Positions 1 through 8,272 of a DNA stretch of 64,000 nt are shown here, one piece after another. The first letter of the stretch is position 1. Every line of letters starts with the position of its first letter. The notes under the pieces are model-generated. The model was given only the letters and a program-made list of their open reading frames with translations, ran no database searches and had not been told where the DNA came from. Source of the DNA: Escherichia phage wV7. The DNA is taken from the sequence record NC_019505.1; one strand, given 5' to 3'. A program made the translations under genes and the position numbers.

Positions 1-399
1 CACATATTGCCACTGAGTACGAGGAATAAGAGCAAAAGCATCCATCTCTGGAATCATAACGCCATCTTTATTTTCAAAATAAGACTCGCAATGGCAATTT
101 CTGAACATCTCATGCTCTACTGGAATCGTATAATAAAATAACTGTAAGTCTTTATTACTAGAATATTTAAATATACCTAGGTCTTCTAGAAGGTCTGGAT
201 TATAATTGCTAAAACCGGTCTCTTCTAAGCATTCTCTTTTTGCAGCTTCCAGTGCATTCAAATCAGAACTTTCTACACGCCCCTTTGGAATATCCCAGCG
301 ATGTGCCATCATTCCAGGCTTACGAGAACCAGTAACCCGACCCATAAATAAATCTTTATCTTCTGTCATAAAGATAATACCAGCTGATAGTGTTTTCAT
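1..399 (-). CDS. nudE: Nudix hydrolase NudE (e.1), partial; C-terminal end lies beyond window start
   Basis: Reverse translation from ATG at 397-399 gives MKTLSAGIIF... with a Nudix-box-like segment (RECLEETGF); ATGA start/stop overlap with upstream gene; position matches T4 e.1. Confidence 0.8.
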   Translation of the reverse strand, partial: MKTLSAGIIFMTEDKDLFMGRVTGSRKPGMMAHRWDIPKGRVESSDLNALEAAKRECLEETGFSNYNPDLLEDLGIFKYSSNKDLQLFYYTIPVEHEMFRNCHCESYFENKDGVMIPEMDAFALIPRTQWQYV

Positions 400-884
400 T
401 TTAATTTCCTGCATTCAGTGATAAAGTTATTTAAATTTTGAGTATATTTCTTTTCATCAAAAATCTTTTGTTGTCTGCGTAGCCGCCATGGCATTTCAAT
501 GAACGTGTACCATATCCCAGATAATATTGCTGCAGTAAAAATATTAACAAGTATGGTTAAAAGAATCCAATCTCCTATTCTGTCCATTGGATTTTTTATA
601 AAAAAGTAAAATACGAATGATGTCACAGGAAGACTAATAATATACCACAGAATCATAATTTTATCTGTGAACCAATCAGCGTTCGTTAACTTAGCGCGAC
701 CATTATGAATACACACGAATTTATCATCTGTTATAATAGATGGCTTAGCTGCTTGATATCCCATTCTAAACTCCCTAATCAACAAATTTTTCATATCTTC
801 GGAACAACCATTCCAGTCAACTCTATCAACTGAAATGCCATCATCCCCATCATCTAAATCATACCAGCGAGTTTTTAAAATCAT
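396..884 (-). CDS. hypothetical small membrane protein (two C-terminal hydrophobic helices)
   Basis: ATG-start 162 aa ORF, TGA overlaps nudE ATG; hydrophobic segments IMILWYIISLPVTSFVFYFFI and ILLTILVNIFTAAILSGIWYTFI. Confidence 0.55.
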   Translation of the reverse strand: MILKTRWYDLDDGDDGISVDRVDWNGCSEDMKNLLIREFRMGYQAAKPSIITDDKFVCIHNGRAKLTNADWFTDKIMILWYIISLPVTSFVFYFFIKNPMDRIGDWILLTILVNIFTAAILSGIWYTFIEMPWRLRRQQKIFDEKKYTQNLNNFITECRKLK

Positions 885-1255
885 TTAATTTTCCTACAAT
901 CACTCACAAACTCTTCCATTGATTCTTTTTCAATATAAGACATGTAGCTATTATATTCCTTTAATTGTATTTTGTAATCCTTTTTTCTTTGCCAATTTAT
1001 TTTAAAATTATCATAATGAAAATATAACATTGTACCAAAGAATGAAAATAATGAAATCGCTATAGTATAATGAAGTTCACTCCAAACTTCTATTATATCT
1101 ATTATACCGCTGACGTTACTACGGATGTTTAAAATAAGACAGTCAATTAACAATCCAAAAAGACTACCCGCAAGAGCTGTAGCCAACGCTACAGCAAAAA
1201 TTAAAAATGACTCAGGAAGAGAATATTTGACTTTATTTAGTTTTGGCTTTTGCAT
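881..1255 (-). CDS. hypothetical small membrane protein
   Basis: 124 aa ORF with ATG start; hydrophobic helices; stop overlaps start of downstream gene. Confidence 0.55.
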   Translation of the reverse strand: MQKPKLNKVKYSLPESFLIFAVALATALAGSLFGLLIDCLILNIRSNVSGIIDIIEVWSELHYTIAISLFSFFGTMLYFHYDNFKINWQRKKDYKIQLKEYNSYMSYIEKESMEEFVSDCRKIK

Positions 1256-1629
1256 CGTGATTCCTTAACAAATTTCATAATTTCATCAAATTCATGCGCA
1301 GCAAGTTTAAGCTGATGTTCCTTTTTAATCTTTTTACACTGAGCTTTCCAATCACGTACACGTTTACGATAGTGTCTTCCTTGATACCAATATCCTATCC
1401 AATTTATAGGTACTAATAAAAGCGGAACTACCAACGGAAGAATTAGTGTTGCTCCAAATATTGCACCAGATTCAATATCAGTCATAACGTCTATAACCAT
1501 TCCAGCAATCACCAGAATCACAAATGATACAACTACCACAGGACCTATTAACACATCAGTAGAAATTATCTGACGCTTTAATTCATACTTCAACGGTTTA
1601 CTTGGAAGGTATAGTGATGGTTTTGACAT
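1237..1629 (-). CDS. hypothetical small membrane protein
   Basis: Track ORF starts at TTG (1650); first ATG at 1627-1629 (MSKPSLY...) is preceded by AAGGAA; two hydrophobic helices. Confidence 0.5.
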   Translation of the reverse strand: MSKPSLYLPSKPLKYELKRQIISTDVLIGPVVVVSFVILVIAGMVIDVMTDIESGAIFGATLILPLVVPLLLVPINWIGYWYQGRHYRKRVRDWKAQCKKIKKEHQLKLAAHEFDEIMKFVKESRCKSQN

Positions 1630-2206
1630 ATTCTCTACATTCCTTAACAAATTTTTCTAATAATAAATCGCTTTCAAAATTGGGATTTTCTACGAATTTA
1701 TCAAAAAGATCATCGACAATAGTTAAGATATTCTTTTTACTAAGAATACGTTTATTTTCATATTTTGTTTCAGAGTCAACTATAAGAGTAAAGAAATATT
1801 TCTTGCCCTGAAATTTTACAGTAGTATCAATATAGAATAAATTTGACTTTTGTAAATTACGTTTAAACCATGCATCACTTAAACTATAAACGCCAAGATA
1901 ATCATAATCGTCGTTTAAATAACAGACCGTCCATTCAGGAGAAACAAAATCAGTAAATTCAACGTCAAAATCGCATGTTAATAAATGAATTGATTCAATA
2001 CTGTTAATAAGTATTCCAGGACGTATTAAAGACTTTTTACCTCTAGAAAATCTTCCAGAAAGATTTTCAACAGTTTCATATGAAGAACCCCAATAATAAT
2101 TACGTCCTTCTGCCATACGTTTAAGAGCATTTAATAATTGGTCTGGAACATCAACCTGTCTTTGGAACTCTTCAAACATTGAATTGAAATCACTTTGCAT
2201 TTTCAT
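1598..2206 (-). CDS. hypothetical protein
   Basis: 202 aa ORF with ATG start preceded by GGAGTAAGTAGGA; no recognisable motif. Confidence 0.55.
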   Translation of the reverse strand: MKMQSDFNSMFEEFQRQVDVPDQLLNALKRMAEGRNYYWGSSYETVENLSGRFSRGKKSLIRPGILINSIESIHLLTCDFDVEFTDFVSPEWTVCYLNDDYDYLGVYSLSDAWFKRNLQKSNLFYIDTTVKFQGKKYFFTLIVDSETKYENKRILSKKNILTIVDDLFDKFVENPNFESDLLLEKFVKECREYVKTITIPSK

Positions 2207-2226: not shown

Positions 2227-2241
2227 AGGGGCCGAAGCCCC
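2227..2241 (-). other. intercistronic GGGGC-UUCG-GCCCC tetraloop hairpin (minus-strand RNA)
   Basis: Perfect 5 bp GC stem with UUCG loop when read on the coding (minus) strand; no U-run follows. Confidence 0.5.
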
Positions 2242-2247
2242 TTATCA

Positions 2248-2841
2248 TTATTTCAGAGAATTAATATATTCCTGAACATCGGCAGAGGTAGTTTCAACCC
2301 CAGAAATATTACCATTAAAGGTTTCAACTCGAGCAAGAGTATCTTCAATATCAACCTTAGTCAGTGCTGCAATTTCAACTACATCATCAGCAGTACTAAT
2401 TCCAAGGGCATTCGCGGCGCGAGTTTCACGGATATATTCCAATTTAACTGCAAGTTCTTGGCGAGCATCATCTAACTCAACTACTTTCTTGGCAATTTCA
2501 ATTCGCATTTCAGCATAACCATCAGCTTTAGTAGTCAACTGCTCAGCTGTTCGACGATATAGTAAACCGAGTTTAGCATGCATTGTTACATCTTGACCTT
2601 CAGAAAGGAGCTTGCGAATTTCACGCTCTTTTGATTCGGCCTGCTTATTCTTTTCGACAATAAGTTCACGAATACGCTTTTCTTCATTAATAGATTTAAC
2701 AGAAGCAGTTTTTAGATCTTTAATTTTATCAAGCAATTTTGCTGCTGCGGCAGTATACTGCTCTTCAACAGATAGATTTTTAGCCATAGCAGAACCAAGT
2801 TTAGTGCGAATAAACTCAACAATTTTTTTCAGTGTGTTCAT
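2248..2841 (-). CDS. hypothetical coiled-coil protein
   Basis: 197 aa, ATG start; heptad-like charged/hydrophobic periodicity throughout; no catalytic motif. Confidence 0.6.
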
Positions 2842-2884
2842 AGTATTTCCTTAGGTTGATTAGAAATTAAAATCTGCAGAAGAA

Positions 2885-3403
2885 TTATATCATGCTACTT
2901 AAGAGATGTAAACTATTTTTAATTTTACAAATTCGTTCAGCTTCTTCAACAGCGGCAGTGATAATGCTTTTAGCTATAGGAGTACTAATATTAGTAGCTT
3001 TTACACTTAACACGATTTCTTTATCTTTACCAGGCCAACCCCACGATTTTTCACCATGAGTGCCTTTAATTACAGCAGACACCTCAAGTGAGCATCCATT
3101 ATCGCATGTTTTTACATTAACAACCCAAGTGTCACTTTTCTCAACCGGTTTATCCCAGTAAATATTAAGAATACGTGGGACATCAAATTTAGCAGGGCAA
3201 ATCTTAACCGTAAGACCTTCGCTTTCTAGCCAATTAATAAGAGGGCGTTCATACATGCGGCGATGTGGGCTTTGAACTCGACAAGCTTTGTACCCATTGC
3301 TTGCGGCTTCACTAAGCTCTTCTAATACATGCTTTTGCATTATTGATAAGATACCATCAAAAGATTTTTCGGAAGTTTCATTCAGTTCGGTATAAAGAGA
3401 CAT
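2885..3403 (-). CDS. hypothetical protein
   Basis: Track start at 3418 is TTG; ATG at 3401-3403 (MSLYTEL...) preceded by GAGGAAA. Confidence 0.55.
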   Translation of the reverse strand: MSLYTELNETSEKSFDGILSIMQKHVLEELSEAASNGYKACRVQSPHRRMYERPLINWLESEGLTVKICPAKFDVPRILNIYWDKPVEKSDTWVVNVKTCDNGCSLEVSAVIKGTHGEKSWGWPGKDKEIVLSVKATNISTPIAKSIITAAVEEAERICKIKNSLHLLSSMI

Positions 3404-3825: not shown

Positions 3826-3928
3826 TGGGGAATTCTAGGGCAGGGAGGGGAAATCAAAGGATAGGATAATATATTATAAAGGGTAGAAACTAAATGATGT
3901 CTAGAGAGGCCTGGAAAGGCCTAGATAC

Positions 3929-3958
3929 CAAAAAGCCCCAACCTTTCGGCTAGGGCTA
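3929..3958 (-). terminator. rho-independent terminator-like hairpin with U-run (minus strand)
   Basis: GC-rich imperfect stem (GCCCCAACC/GGCTAGGGC) followed on minus strand by UUUUU. Confidence 0.45.
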
Positions 3959-3964
3959 AGAATG

Positions 3965-4438
3965 TTATTTGATTTGTTTAGCAGACCAAATGCGGTCTTT
4001 AATAATTTTTTGGATGTCTTCAACATACTCAAGAGAGTGAGCATGTGGATTATCTTTGAAACTATAAGCACGAGCTAGTTTTTGGCCTTCAGTTTTGATT
4101 ACTAAAAGCTCTTTAAGGATAGCTTCATATTTGGAGATAATTCCTTTAACAATATTTTTCTCTTGTGCGACTTTAGGATCTGCTTTAGGAGCAGGTTTAC
4201 CCGAAGCCTTTGCAAAAGCAGCGCCAGTAGCAACTAAACTTTTCCAGGCCATACTAACTGCATTTCCCGTAAATCCTTCCGCTTTCATGTCGCGTGCGAA
4301 CTGGAATCGCGATTCATCAGAAGCATCTTTATAAGAATATTTACCCGCTGCAATGGCTGCTTTTGCGACAGCTTGAATTTCGGTGCTAGATGCTTCATTT
4401 AACACCGCTTCATTTAAAAATTGAGTATATGATTTCAT
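3965..4438 (-). CDS. internal-protein-like head protein with capsid-targeting N-terminus
   Basis: N-terminus MKSYTQFLNEA resembles the T4 IPI/IPII/IPIII/Alt capsid targeting sequence, with L-x-E motifs typical of gp21 protease sites; preceded by a late promoter and flanked by hairpin terminators. Confidence 0.55.
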   Translation of the reverse strand: MKSYTQFLNEAVLNEASSTEIQAVAKAAIAAGKYSYKDASDESRFQFARDMKAEGFTGNAVSMAWKSLVATGAAFAKASGKPAPKADPKVAQEKNIVKGIISKYEAILKELLVIKTEGQKLARAYSFKDNPHAHSLEYVEDIQKIIKDRIWSAKQIK

Positions 4439-4478: not shown

Positions 4479-4486
4479 TATTTATA
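4479..4486 (-). promoter_or_regulatory. T4 late promoter -10 element TATAAATA (minus strand)
   Basis: Exact TATAAATA about 40 nt upstream of ATG at 4438. Confidence 0.5.
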
Positions 4487-4520
4487 CCAAAAAGCCCCAA
4501 CCTTTCGGTCGGGGCTAAGC
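4487..4520 (-). terminator. rho-independent terminator (minus strand)
   Basis: Stem GCCCCGACC/GGTTGGGGC followed by UUUUU on minus-strand RNA. Confidence 0.5.
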
Positions 4521-7194: not shown

Positions 7195-7252
7195 GGTAAT
7201 AGTATCACTACTAAAACCCCGTGTAAACAACTTTGTGAAATTATTTTAAATC
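7195..7252 (-). promoter_or_regulatory. T4 early-type promoter (-35 GTTTAC, -10 TACTAT)
   Basis: Minus-strand GATTTAAAATAATTTCACAAAGTTGTTTAC-N18-TACTAT; 32 nt core identical to the copy at 7553-7584. Confidence 0.5.
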
Positions 7253-7498
7253 TTCTAATCGTTTCTTCATCTTAGAACCATTTTTAGCGATTTCTCCTGC
7301 GTCAGAGCATAATGCTAAAAGTGCTTTAACTTTAGTTTGGTCTCCTTTAAAAGACGAAGGATCGACTGCAGCAGCAAGTTCTTTAATACGAGAGAAAAGA
7401 CGCTCAGCTTCAGCTAAAGCCATTCCAAGCTTTACTTCCATACCATGAGAAGATTCAGTGATAATAGTTTCTGTAGCAAACTCTTTATAAGTTTTCAT
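7241..7498 (-). CDS. internal protein I-like head protein (capsid-targeting N-terminus)
   Basis: N-terminus MKTYKEFATETIITE resembles the T4 internal-protein CTS (MKTYQEF...), with I-x-E motif; 85 aa; positioned where ipI lies in T4 (downstream of 57B). Confidence 0.6.
   Translation of the reverse strand: MKTYKEFATETIITESSHGMEVKLGMALAEAERLFSRIKELAAAVDPSSFKGDQTKVKALLALCSDAGEIAKNGSKMKKRLEDLK

Positions 7499-7529: not shown

Positions 7530-8272
<743 letters not shown>

Follow-up and report, generated by a model that had tools for sequence, protein, structure and literature searches.

The genes e.5, e.4, e.3 and e.2 of T4-type phages end in a reiterated junction element that, on balance, probably does double duty within a coupled block, encoding the tail peptide of one protein and supplying the initiation of the next gene, with copies that lie as direct repeats and would permit the removal of a single gene. 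The block is found in the window analysed here, a stretch of 64,000 nucleotides (64 kb) from Escherichia phage wV7 (NC_019505.1). Variation among T4-type genomes is attributed mainly to the promoter/terminator linker cassettes termed PeSLs (promoter-early stem-loop) and to random microhomologies. The e.5–nudE block presents a third arrangement, in which the repeat lies in coding sequence and doubles as the next ribosome-binding site, and which would give scar-free, in-frame removal of one gene from an operon with predicted coupling. The junctions are a coding-sequence variant of the known linker-mediated shuffling of T4 and do not alone reveal a new biological system; the tail motif, common to four uncharacterised early proteins, provides a handle on their function. 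To our knowledge, annotation of the T4 genome and later work have left e.2–e.5 without an assigned function.

The e.5–nudE gene block

The minus-strand gene series in the window corresponds to T4 e.5, e.4, e.3, e.2 and nudE, in the order annotated in RB51 and T4, and the block is 100% identical to that of E. coli O157 typing phage 7 and 99.7% identical to that of RB51. The products of e.2–e.5 match PHROGs 2203, 2330, 2604 and 2607 over their full length (E-values 1e-63 to 1e-108), precomputed Pfam matches assign these ORF families to PF26896, PF26873 (Phage_T4_Y06O) and PF26876 (Phage_T4_Y06P), and the genes keep their expected place beside nudE/e.6, which identifies them as members of the T4 ORF families. 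The features of the region are as follows.

1598–2206, minus strand: e.5, 202 aa, soluble ORFan, Pfam Phage_T4_Y06P; FVKECR lies 11 residues from the stop
1237–1629, minus strand: e.4, 130 aa from the ATG, Pfam Phage_T4_Y06O; tail FVKESR-C
881–1255, minus strand: e.3, 124 aa; tail FVSDCRKIK
396–884, minus strand: e.2, 162 aa; 75-aa N-terminal domain, two transmembrane helices, tail FITECRKLK
1–399, minus strand: 5′ part of nudE (e.1, Nudix hydrolase), which closes the coupled series and is cut by the window edge
2227–2242, minus strand: GC hairpin GGGGCUUCGGCCCC between e.6 and e.5, with no U-run on the minus strand

The hairpin marks the upstream boundary of a tightly packed block from which intergenic space is absent throughout, all four junctions being stop/start overlaps: ATGA (4 nt) at both e.3–e.2 and e.2–nudE, 19 nt at e.4/e.3 and 32 nt at e.5/e.4. 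A Shine–Dalgarno (SD) sequence lies inside the upstream ORF at each of the four, 6–11 nt ahead of the ATG, and e.5–nudE is presumably a run of overlapping, translationally coupled genes. Such coupled genes, overlapping by ATGA or by longer stretches, are common in T4 and other phages; we know of no ordinary coupled junctions at which a six-residue motif is common to four consecutive, mostly unrelated proteins.

Membrane character and relationships of the products

Three of the products had been proposed to be small two-helix membrane proteins, and the hydrophobicity profiles agree: e.2 and e.4 have two strong hydrophobic segments apiece, and in e.3 a strong segment is paired with a weaker one (Kyte–Doolittle 19-residue mean 1.37). 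The e.4 protein is predicted to be N-in, with two transmembrane helices and a basic cytoplasmic tail, and its AlphaFold2 model (helices 24–49, 54–108 and 111–128; mean pLDDT 69) consists of a helical hairpin and a tail helix only. On these predictions the products of e.2, e.3 and e.4 resemble small membrane proteins of the helical-hairpin type. The e.5 product is predicted to be soluble, and its AlphaFold2 model, built without an alignment, is unusable (pLDDT 40). A role in exclusion or lysis timing, also proposed, gained no informative family, structure or literature match: PHROGs, Pfam, NCBIfam and the PDB gave no match to holin, Imm, Sp, RI, RIII or exclusion/lysis-timing families, and a literature search found no paper on the function of e.2–e.5.

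The e.3 and e.4 proteins have a common N-terminus, M-x-K-P-x-L, and with Mosigvirus sequences included hhalign gives a weak alignment over their whole length (probability 60%, P 8.8e-5); profiles of Tequatrovirus sequences only gave no signal. These two look like diverged tandem paralogues, as far as the alignments indicate. Whole-gene common descent is unproven for e.2, because its match to e.3 is confined to the 14-residue tail and its comparison with e.4 gave no match. For e.5, whose product is soluble, whole-gene common descent can in practice be dismissed.

A common tail peptide

The four tails are exactly those of the original prediction, both in wording and in position on the minus strand: e.5 ends ...KFVKECREYVKTITIPSK, e.4 ...KFVKESRCKSQN, e.3 ...EEFVSDCRKIK and e.2 ...NNFITECRKLK. 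The pattern F-[VI]-x-[ED]-[CS]-R, which was set post hoc, has four matches across all six reading frames of the window (0.37 expected), and all four are the ends of e.5, e.4, e.3 and e.2. In a pattern-free test on the C-terminal 22 aa of 77 ORFs, scored by the best ungapped 7-mer, the top 8 of 2926 gene-tail pairs (top 0.3%) included four of the six e.2–e.5 pairs. Once the motif is removed, no residual similarity was found among the tails.

The Mosigvirus orthologues of e.5, e.4 and e.3, with 39–51% overall identity, have the tails FIMECR, FVKEIR-C and FIKECRK (then stop), respectively; the motif is retained in e.5 and e.3, and e.4 has Ile at position 5 (FVKEIR). This conservation data set covers two genera, a search for remote homologues of e.5 returned only five cluster representatives in 1.84 billion proteins, and an IMG/VR scan gave four loci. 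Among the seven distinct cassettes, pairwise differences number 24, 11 and 47 at codon positions 1, 2 and 3, and the synonymous changes include CGA/AGA/AGG, TGT/TGC and TTT/TTC. The codons that hold the SD differ: K-E for e.4, e.5 and Mosigvirus e.3, C-R-K for Tequatrovirus e.2 and e.3. The motif is therefore more than a ribosome-binding site, being conserved, biased to third-position change and occupied by the SD at differing codons.

One way to account for these properties is that the tail works solely as a short linear peptide motif, such as a docking or assembly signal joining e.5 and the three membrane proteins to one another or to one partner, with the DNA repeats and the deletion of e.2 described below being incidental; we regard this as rather unlikely. 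The third-position bias with its synonymous changes would suit such a motif, as would its retention while the SD shifts within it, its presence in otherwise unrelated proteins, the Cys kept within two residues of it in all seven tails, and the terminal helix predicted at the motif in the e.4 model and likewise in the low-confidence e.5 model. An independent peptide signal, however, needs no overlap with the initiation region of the next gene, with which the motif always coincides, and dual coding with an overlapping downstream start also accounts for the conservation among orthologues, in a data set that is shallow at two genera.

Junction cassettes at the DNA level

Repeated junctions that embed the SD and ATG of the next gene were found at all four gene boundaries, where they had been predicted, and are listed here.

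1627–1654, minus strand: e.5→e.4 cassette; motif codons TTT GTT AAG GAA TGT AGA at 1651–1634; SD AAGGA at 1645–1641, e.4 ATG at 1629–1627, 11-nt spacer
1253–1275, minus strand: e.4→e.3 cassette; motif codons TTT GTT AAG GAA TCA CGA at 1272–1255; SD AAGGA at 1266–1262, e.3 ATG at 1255–1253, 6-nt spacer
881–910, minus strand: e.3→e.2 cassette; motif codons TTT GTG AGT GAT TGT AGG at 910–893; SD AGGA at 895–892, ATGA stop/start overlap at 884–881
396–425, minus strand: e.2→nudE cassette; motif codons TTT ATC ACT GAA TGC AGG at 425–408; SD AGGA at 410–407, ATGA overlap at 399–396

The sequence AAATTTGTTAAGGAAT has exactly two copies in the window, at 1260–1275 and 1639–1654, against a background of 0.32 expected matches with up to two mismatches, two being reached in 4 of 100 shuffles. 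The second pair consists of TGTAGGAAAATTAAATGA at 881–898 and its partner TGCAGGAAATTAAAATGA at 396–413, and this e.2/e.3 DNA pair is within the top 0.5% of gene 3′-end pairs; generic T4 SD+ATGA sites at 7495 and 19974 resemble the e.2/e.3 cassette with one or two mismatches. Allowing for such generic signals, the DNA similarity among junctions is modest, and the expectation that the junctions resemble one another beyond chance is clearly borne out for the peptide tails and more weakly for the DNA.

The look-alike sites, together with DNA-level scores that are not extreme, are what chance and the generic SD and ATGA needs of a compact AT-rich genome would produce, and AGGAAA...ATGA in that frame forces RK-x-K before the stop. 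As an explanation of the tails this is nevertheless very improbable: the SD accounts for at most two codons and not for F-[VI]-x-[ED]-C-R, and the confinement of the motif to these four gene ends in the six-frame translation, the ranks of the tail pairs and the recurrence of the motif in three Mosigvirus orthologues largely refute it.

By direct reading of the sequences, the e.4 and e.5 cassettes match each other at 16/16 positions in Tequatrovirus, and comparison of either with its Mosigvirus orthologue gives only 13/16; for e.4 and e.5, cassettes within a genus thus resemble each other more than orthologous cassettes do. A 22-nt part of the e.5→e.4 cassette, GGAATGTAGAGAATATGTCAAA, is identical in Mosigvirus.

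No promoter-like site was found overlapping 396–425, 881–910, 1253–1275 or 1627–1654, RNA folding of the four junctions gave no stable structure (z-scores of +1.0, +0.9, −0.7 and +1.3 against shuffles), a result that is neutral on translational coupling, and an Rfam scan of the junctions gave no match. An element acting at the RNA level for coordinated control, such as a repressor site for RegA or an S1-binding, U-rich enhancer 5′ of the SD, with the peptide likeness as a side effect, is quite improbable. RegA sites are A+U-rich, unstructured and overlap the AUG or lie just 5′ of it, with the SELEX consensus aaAAUUGUUAUGUAA and natural sites that include AAAAUUUAAUGUUU (PMC3014915). The junction element does always lie in an unstructured, A+U-rich initiation region, and AAAUUUGUUAAGGAAU and GAAAAUUAAAUGAUUU are similar to RegA sites when judged by eye; the likeness is visual only, A/U-rich RegA-like sites being common in T4. 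The distance from motif to AUG, moreover, ranges from −1 to +8 nt, and the nucleotide changes fit the codon pattern of protein constraint.

Absence of e.2 and crossover within the repeat

The e.2 gene is absent from T2, RB32, PST and at least 50 other genomes, and in many relatives it is absent, truncated or fused. The T2-type e.3/nudE junction has a left part of e.3 type (..GAGTTTGTGAGTGAT) and a right part of e.2/nudE type (TGCAGGAAATTAAAATGAAAACAC); the junctions of T2 and L015 read GAT, TGCAGGAAA and TTAAAATGA in succession, with the hybrid copy retained, and T2 e.3 ends CRKLK, like e.2. This hybrid junction is present as a single piece in at least 55 phage records, T2 among them, and occurs on both e.3 alleles, of 120 aa and 124 aa. 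The endpoints of the e.2 deletion lie in a direct repeat (9 nt exact, 16/18 in T4-type sequences), for which the cassette at 396–425 is the natural partner of that at 881–910. Because the e.3→nudE junction is a hybrid of both cassettes, the crossover is placed inside the repeat, and there is direct natural support for the presence or absence of e.2, by loss or gain, having apparently arisen by crossover between the e.3/e.2 and e.2/nudE cassettes.

The proposal that the junctions act as recombination points is thus supported for this pair, and no such event was seen for the e.5/e.4 pair: a synthetic e.5/e.3 (Δe.4) junction compared with 50,697 phage records gave, among its best matches, only two-piece matches from normal e.4+ loci. 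In UFV05 and UFV11 an e.4::e.2 fusion resulted from an in-frame deletion at an unrelated 7-nt microhomology, TCCTGTG, within the first transmembrane helix (TM1). The cassettes are therefore not the sole breakpoints, and since this other deletion used a random microhomology the cassette is possibly just one among many short repeats. As to module shuffling, deletion was seen and replacement by foreign modules is not among the observed events. Nor does the description of the region as hypervariable extend beyond e.2: a direct tblastn search found e.4 in 642 records, essentially all of Tequatrovirus and Mosigvirus and nowhere else, and e.3 and e.5 are annotated beside e.4 at every locus inspected and in the tblastn matches listed.

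A proposed model for a double-duty element

The reading that we favour, in which tail and initiation region share one element, can be set out as follows. At each upstream gene end the element has the consensus TTT RTY AAG GAA TGY AGR, giving F-V/I-K-E-C-R. It codes for the conserved tail of the upstream protein, which is predicted to be helical. It also provides the next gene with an unstructured initiation region and with an SD, which falls either on AAGGAA (the K-E codons) or on TGYAGGAAA (the C-R-K codons). We infer that the array originated by junction duplication, the reiteration having most likely arisen as the array grew, with e.2 and e.5 having only the tail as a common feature, and that the double constraint of peptide and initiation region subsequently maintained the element. 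Homology-driven recombination of T4 between copies would then remove one gene, or duplicate it in the reciprocal product. Exactly one gene would be taken out because the copies are direct repeats, in the same frame and at gene ends, and after the crossover the upstream gene would stay in frame and remain coupled to the gene downstream. For e.2, to judge from the hybrid junctions, this outcome is shown in nature.

A more far-reaching version, in which the element acts as a coding linker of a translational gene-cassette array, with genes gained, lost and exchanged while frame and coupling are kept, and in which the shared tail is also the docking motif by which the soluble protein and its three membrane neighbours join one early-infection complex or bind a single host target, is unlikely.

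Comparison with known systems

T4 recombines through short homologies, and in T4-type phages regulatory linker cassettes give rise to indels (PMC2839356). The PeSL cassettes (Arbiol et al. 2010, PMC2839356; Comeau et al. 2014, PMC4122927) are, like those described here, short, reiterated and terminated by an SD and start codon; both kinds flank small non-essential ORFs, and in both a homologous crossover deletes or inserts whole ORFs and leaves the neighbours unharmed. PeSLs are intergenic and carry a sigma-70-like promoter and a GC stem-loop, so that each ORF is isolated transcriptionally (PMC2839356; PMC4122927), whereas promoter, stem-loop and intergenic space are all absent from the e.5–nudE cassettes. 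Here the repeat is the last 6–10 upstream codons and, unlike a PeSL, would keep translational rather than transcriptional continuity. Of the features that define a PeSL, the junctions have the downstream SD and start codon at the 3′ end of the element; ORF removal by recombination is seen for the e.3/e.2 cassette pair only, from the natural hybrid junction, and the only hairpin is that at 2227–2242, upstream of e.5.

Deletions that T4 and E. coli undergo between short direct repeats (Singer et al. 1982; Albertini et al. 1982; both cited in PMC2839356 and PMC4122927) likewise retain one hybrid copy, as in the case of e.2. In contrast to random short repeats, the e.2 repeat is a conserved functional element that recurs in frame at corresponding places in adjacent genes, and this would be why excision of e.2 is precise and viable.

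At the internal-protein (IP) locus of T-even phages, the elements carry the conserved 5′ leader of the gene that follows. The shared coding part of the e.2–e.5 junctions is, unlike in IP elements, the 3′ tail of the upstream gene. As summarised in PMC2839356, the IP locus cassettes (Repoila et al. 1994) are also T-even, with boundary repeats that contain some coding sequence, and these repeats, like the present junctions, have been proposed to mediate the gain, loss and exchange of small genes; in the same summary the IP elements have a T4 early promoter and a weak AT-rich stem-loop, whereas no promoter is found here. The IP gene of the window itself has a surrounding repeat of the IP-locus kind.

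Gene content and identity

Over its first 3 kb the window matches E. coli O157 typing phage 7 at 100% identity and RB51 at 99.7%; these two phages are Tequatroviruses (T4-like), and ORF names were taken from the RB51 and T4 annotations.

Genes of the block and its upstream neighbour (RB51/T4 annotation)
2248-2841, minus strand, e.6
1598-2206, minus strand, e.5
1237-1629, minus strand, e.4
881-1255, minus strand, e.3
396-884, minus strand, e.2
from 399 downwards, minus strand, nudE (e.1, Nudix hydrolase), cut by the window edge

Matches in PHROGs extend over the full length, with every family listed as 'membrane protein' or of unknown function, and recent placeholder families in precomputed Pfam cover e.4 (Phage_T4_Y06O), e.5 (Phage_T4_Y06P) and e.2 (PF26896). 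Since e.4 is found in Tequatrovirus and Mosigvirus only and e.5 has just five cluster representatives in 1.84 billion proteins, the block is a T-even ORFan set. Pfam, NCBIfam and PDB sequence searches returned nothing informative on function, and no literature on the function of e.2-e.5 was found. Homologues of e.3, e.4 and e.6 are named 'sulfurtransferase', 'DNA primase', 'major capsid protein' or 'host specificity protein' in public databases; these appear to be propagated mis-annotations, because no family search supports them.

The original prediction of three small two-helix membrane proteins holds for e.2 and e.4, each with two strong hydrophobic segments, and less fully for e.3, with one strong and one weaker segment; hydropathy gave no hydrophobic segments in e.5 or e.6. 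An N-in/C-in topology fits the charge distribution. In the AlphaFold2 model of e.4 (pLDDT 69), a terminal helix bearing the tail motif comes after a helical hairpin; the single-sequence model of e.5 (pLDDT 40) was unusable. The exclusion or lysis-timing role suggested for these proteins is pure conjecture.

Reiterated gene junctions

The most likely reading of the block is a dual-use junction element that would combine a conserved peptide tail with the initiation region of the gene downstream, repeated through a coupled operon and probably originating in junction duplication. It would add a variant to known phage genome plasticity and not a new system. The four similar C-terminal peptides and the repeated DNA cassettes are all present as described: an exact 16-mer, AAATTTGTTAAGGAAT, lies at 1260-1275 and 1639-1654, and a second pair is formed by TGTAGGAAAATTAAATGA (881-898) and TGCAGGAAATTAAAATGA (396-413). 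Every junction overlaps (e.3/e.2 and e.2/nudE by ATGA, e.4/e.3 by 19 nt, e.5/e.4 by 32 nt), and the next gene's Shine-Dalgarno (SD) and ATG are indeed embedded in the previous gene, with the SD within it, 6-11 nt 5' of each ATG.

A six-frame translation of all 64 kb contains F[VI]x[ED][CS]R four times where 0.37 would be expected, each time at one of the four gene ends; the pattern was derived from the same data in which it was counted, and a pattern-free comparison of ORF tails was therefore added. In this comparison, which took the C-terminal 22 residues from each of 77 ORFs, four of the six e.2-e.5 tail pairs rank among the top eight of 2926. With the motif taken out, the remaining tails have no residual similarity. 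The predicted similarity thus exceeds chance in the peptide tails, but at the DNA level the signal is only modest, e.2/e.3 lying within the top 0.5% of 3'-end pairs. Further SD+ATGA sites within the window look like the e.2/e.3 cassette, and a generic T4 initiation signal, with the 'RK-x-K-stop' peptide that it forces, is therefore part of the DNA similarity.

Possible paralogy of the array genes

An N-terminus (M-x-K-P-x-L), the architecture and the tail motif are common to the products of e.3 and e.4, and hhalign, run with Mosigvirus sequences added, aligns the two end-to-end (probability 60%, P 8.8e-5); the profile comparison without those sequences gave no signal. The e.2/e.3 match is confined to the last 14 residues, e.2 and e.4 do not match, and e.5 is a soluble, different protein. 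A tandem duplication could thus plausibly have produced e.3/e.4, and what e.2 and e.5 have in common with the others is the junction itself. The Tequatrovirus e.4 and e.5 cassettes are identical to each other over 16 nt, and comparison with the respective Mosigvirus orthologue shows differences at 3/16 positions for each; concerted evolution of the cassettes would account for this, as would chance on so small a number of sites.

Peptide constraint or RNA signal

Orthologues from Mosigvirus ATK47, AV117, mar005P1 and JS09 share 39-51% identity with the window's proteins and still carry the motif at their ends (e.5, ..FIMECREYVK..; e.4, ..FVKEIRCKSLNS then stop; e.3, ..FIKECRK then stop). Seven distinct cassettes give the consensus TTT RTY AAG GAA TGY AGR, with differences at codon positions 1/2/3 of 24/11/47, so that third positions dominate; they include synonymous switches (CGA/AGA/AGG, TGT/TGC). 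The SD is AAGGA within the K-E codons in e.4, e.5 and Mosigvirus e.3, and AGGA within the C-R-K codons in Tequatrovirus e.2 and e.3, where the K-E codons are now S-D or T-E. The SD has thus shifted inside the element with F-[VI]-x-[ED]-C-R retained, and motif-to-ATG spacing ranges from -1 to +8 nt, which disfavours a rigid RNA operator. The third-position bias, SD relocation and variable spacing point to a motif that is more than a ribosome-binding site, with the peptide probably under constraint.

The junction RNAs lack structure on folding and match no Rfam family. A RegA operator at the junctions is an improbable alternative suggested by their resemblance to RegA sites, which are A+U-rich, unstructured and located at the AUG (PMC3014915); the codon-position pattern speaks against it.

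Recombination at the junctions

Phage genomes show that in nature the element has served as the crossover point at which e.2 was cleanly excised. T2 lacks e.2, and its e.3 overlaps nudE by ATGA. The T2 junction, GAGTTTGTGAGTGAT followed directly by TGCAGGAAATTAAAATGAAAACAC, is e.3-type on the left and e.2/nudE-type on the right, the latter being why T2 e.3 ends CRKLK like e.2; this hybrid places the crossover within the shared TGCAGGAAA. In T4-type sequences the e.3/e.2 and e.2/nudE cassettes agree at 16/18 positions. The single-piece e.3/nudE junction occurs in at least 55 records, including T2, RB32, RB33, PP01 and PST, and spread sampling of ranked matches suggests that about one in ten Tequatrovirus records has it. 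The same hybrid is found on 120-aa and 124-aa e.3 alleles, including a directly read metagenomic contig, so either the event recurred or recombination spread it. Whether e.2 was lost or gained, the cassette is the boundary of the change.

In the T4 reference e.2 is frameshifted, with a 102-aa product, and 122-aa forms occur in other phages. The T4 reference locus (2491-2961, minus strand) still has ~160 nt that once coded for e.2, left untranslated 5' of nudE, with the FITECRKLK cassette intact, and the annotation places the nudE start at an ATG inside this leftover cassette (MQEIK-MKT...).

The proposal that the junctions act as recombination points is borne out for e.2 but not for the other cassette pair: no e.4 deletion between the e.5/e.4 and e.4/e.3 cassettes was found by a synthetic-junction search (best-ranked matches) or e.4 tblastn. 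UFV05 and UFV11 carry an in-frame e.4::e.2 fusion made at an unrelated 7-nt microhomology, TCCTGTG, which sits in the first transmembrane helix of both genes; the UFV11 chimera (1297-1617 of its locus, minus strand; protein P0098) has 106 aa, and the deletion took out e.3. The cassettes thus count as proven crossover sites, though not as the only ones nor as demonstrably favoured ones.

Comparison with known systems

PeSL cassettes of T4-type phages, which are intergenic and combine a promoter and stem-loop with an SD/ATG end, mediate indels of ORFs as well as mini-circles (PMC2839356, PMC4122927). The e.2-e.5 cassettes resemble them in their SD/ATG end and in the outcome of recombination, but have neither promoter nor stem-loop and are not intergenic. 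The other two of the three nearest described systems are the analogous elements of T-even internal-protein loci and ordinary short-direct-repeat deletion. The cassette is best described as the linker idea in coding sequence, keeping translational and not transcriptional continuity. PST bears the deletion, yet e.2 goes unmentioned in the paper comparing PST with T4.

Other repeats and features nearby

In Mosigvirus ATK47 (1367-2161 of its locus, minus strand) three consecutive paralogous small genes lie 3' of e.3, at the Tequatrovirus e.2-nudE position, and synteny between the two genera breaks off precisely at the e.3 stop/start junction. All three end G-x-W-V-[AS]-S-S-x-x-C, and TAAGGAA(A/T)CA(A/T)TATG follows the first two, with divergence after the third, making this another tandem array whose gene ends are reiterated.

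An internal-protein-like gene (7241-7498, minus strand; leader MKTYKEFATE) and a 57B-like gene upstream (7576-8031, minus strand) both end ...DLK; of all 3'-end pairs in the window, theirs scores highest (29). An identical ~32-nt stretch, GATTTAAAATAATTTCACAAAGTTGTTTACAC, follows each of the two genes and looks like the classical IP-locus flanking repeat. The ORF at 3965-4438 (minus strand) is likely a mobile or inserted cassette; it is flanked by a 17-nt exact direct repeat (3925-3941 / 4484-4500) and two near-identical terminator-like hairpins (3934-3957 / 4493-4516, minus strand), and the RB51 record describes its homologue, RB32ORF132c, as 'flanked by 34 bp imperfect direct repeat'.

Between e.6 and e.5, a perfectly paired GC hairpin capped by a UUCG loop (2227-2242; GGGGCUUCGGCCCC, mRNA strand) has no U-tract 3' and may be an RNA stabiliser or attenuator and not a terminator. 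Upstream of e.6 lies a strong early-promoter-like site, TTTACA-17-TATAAT (2912-2884).
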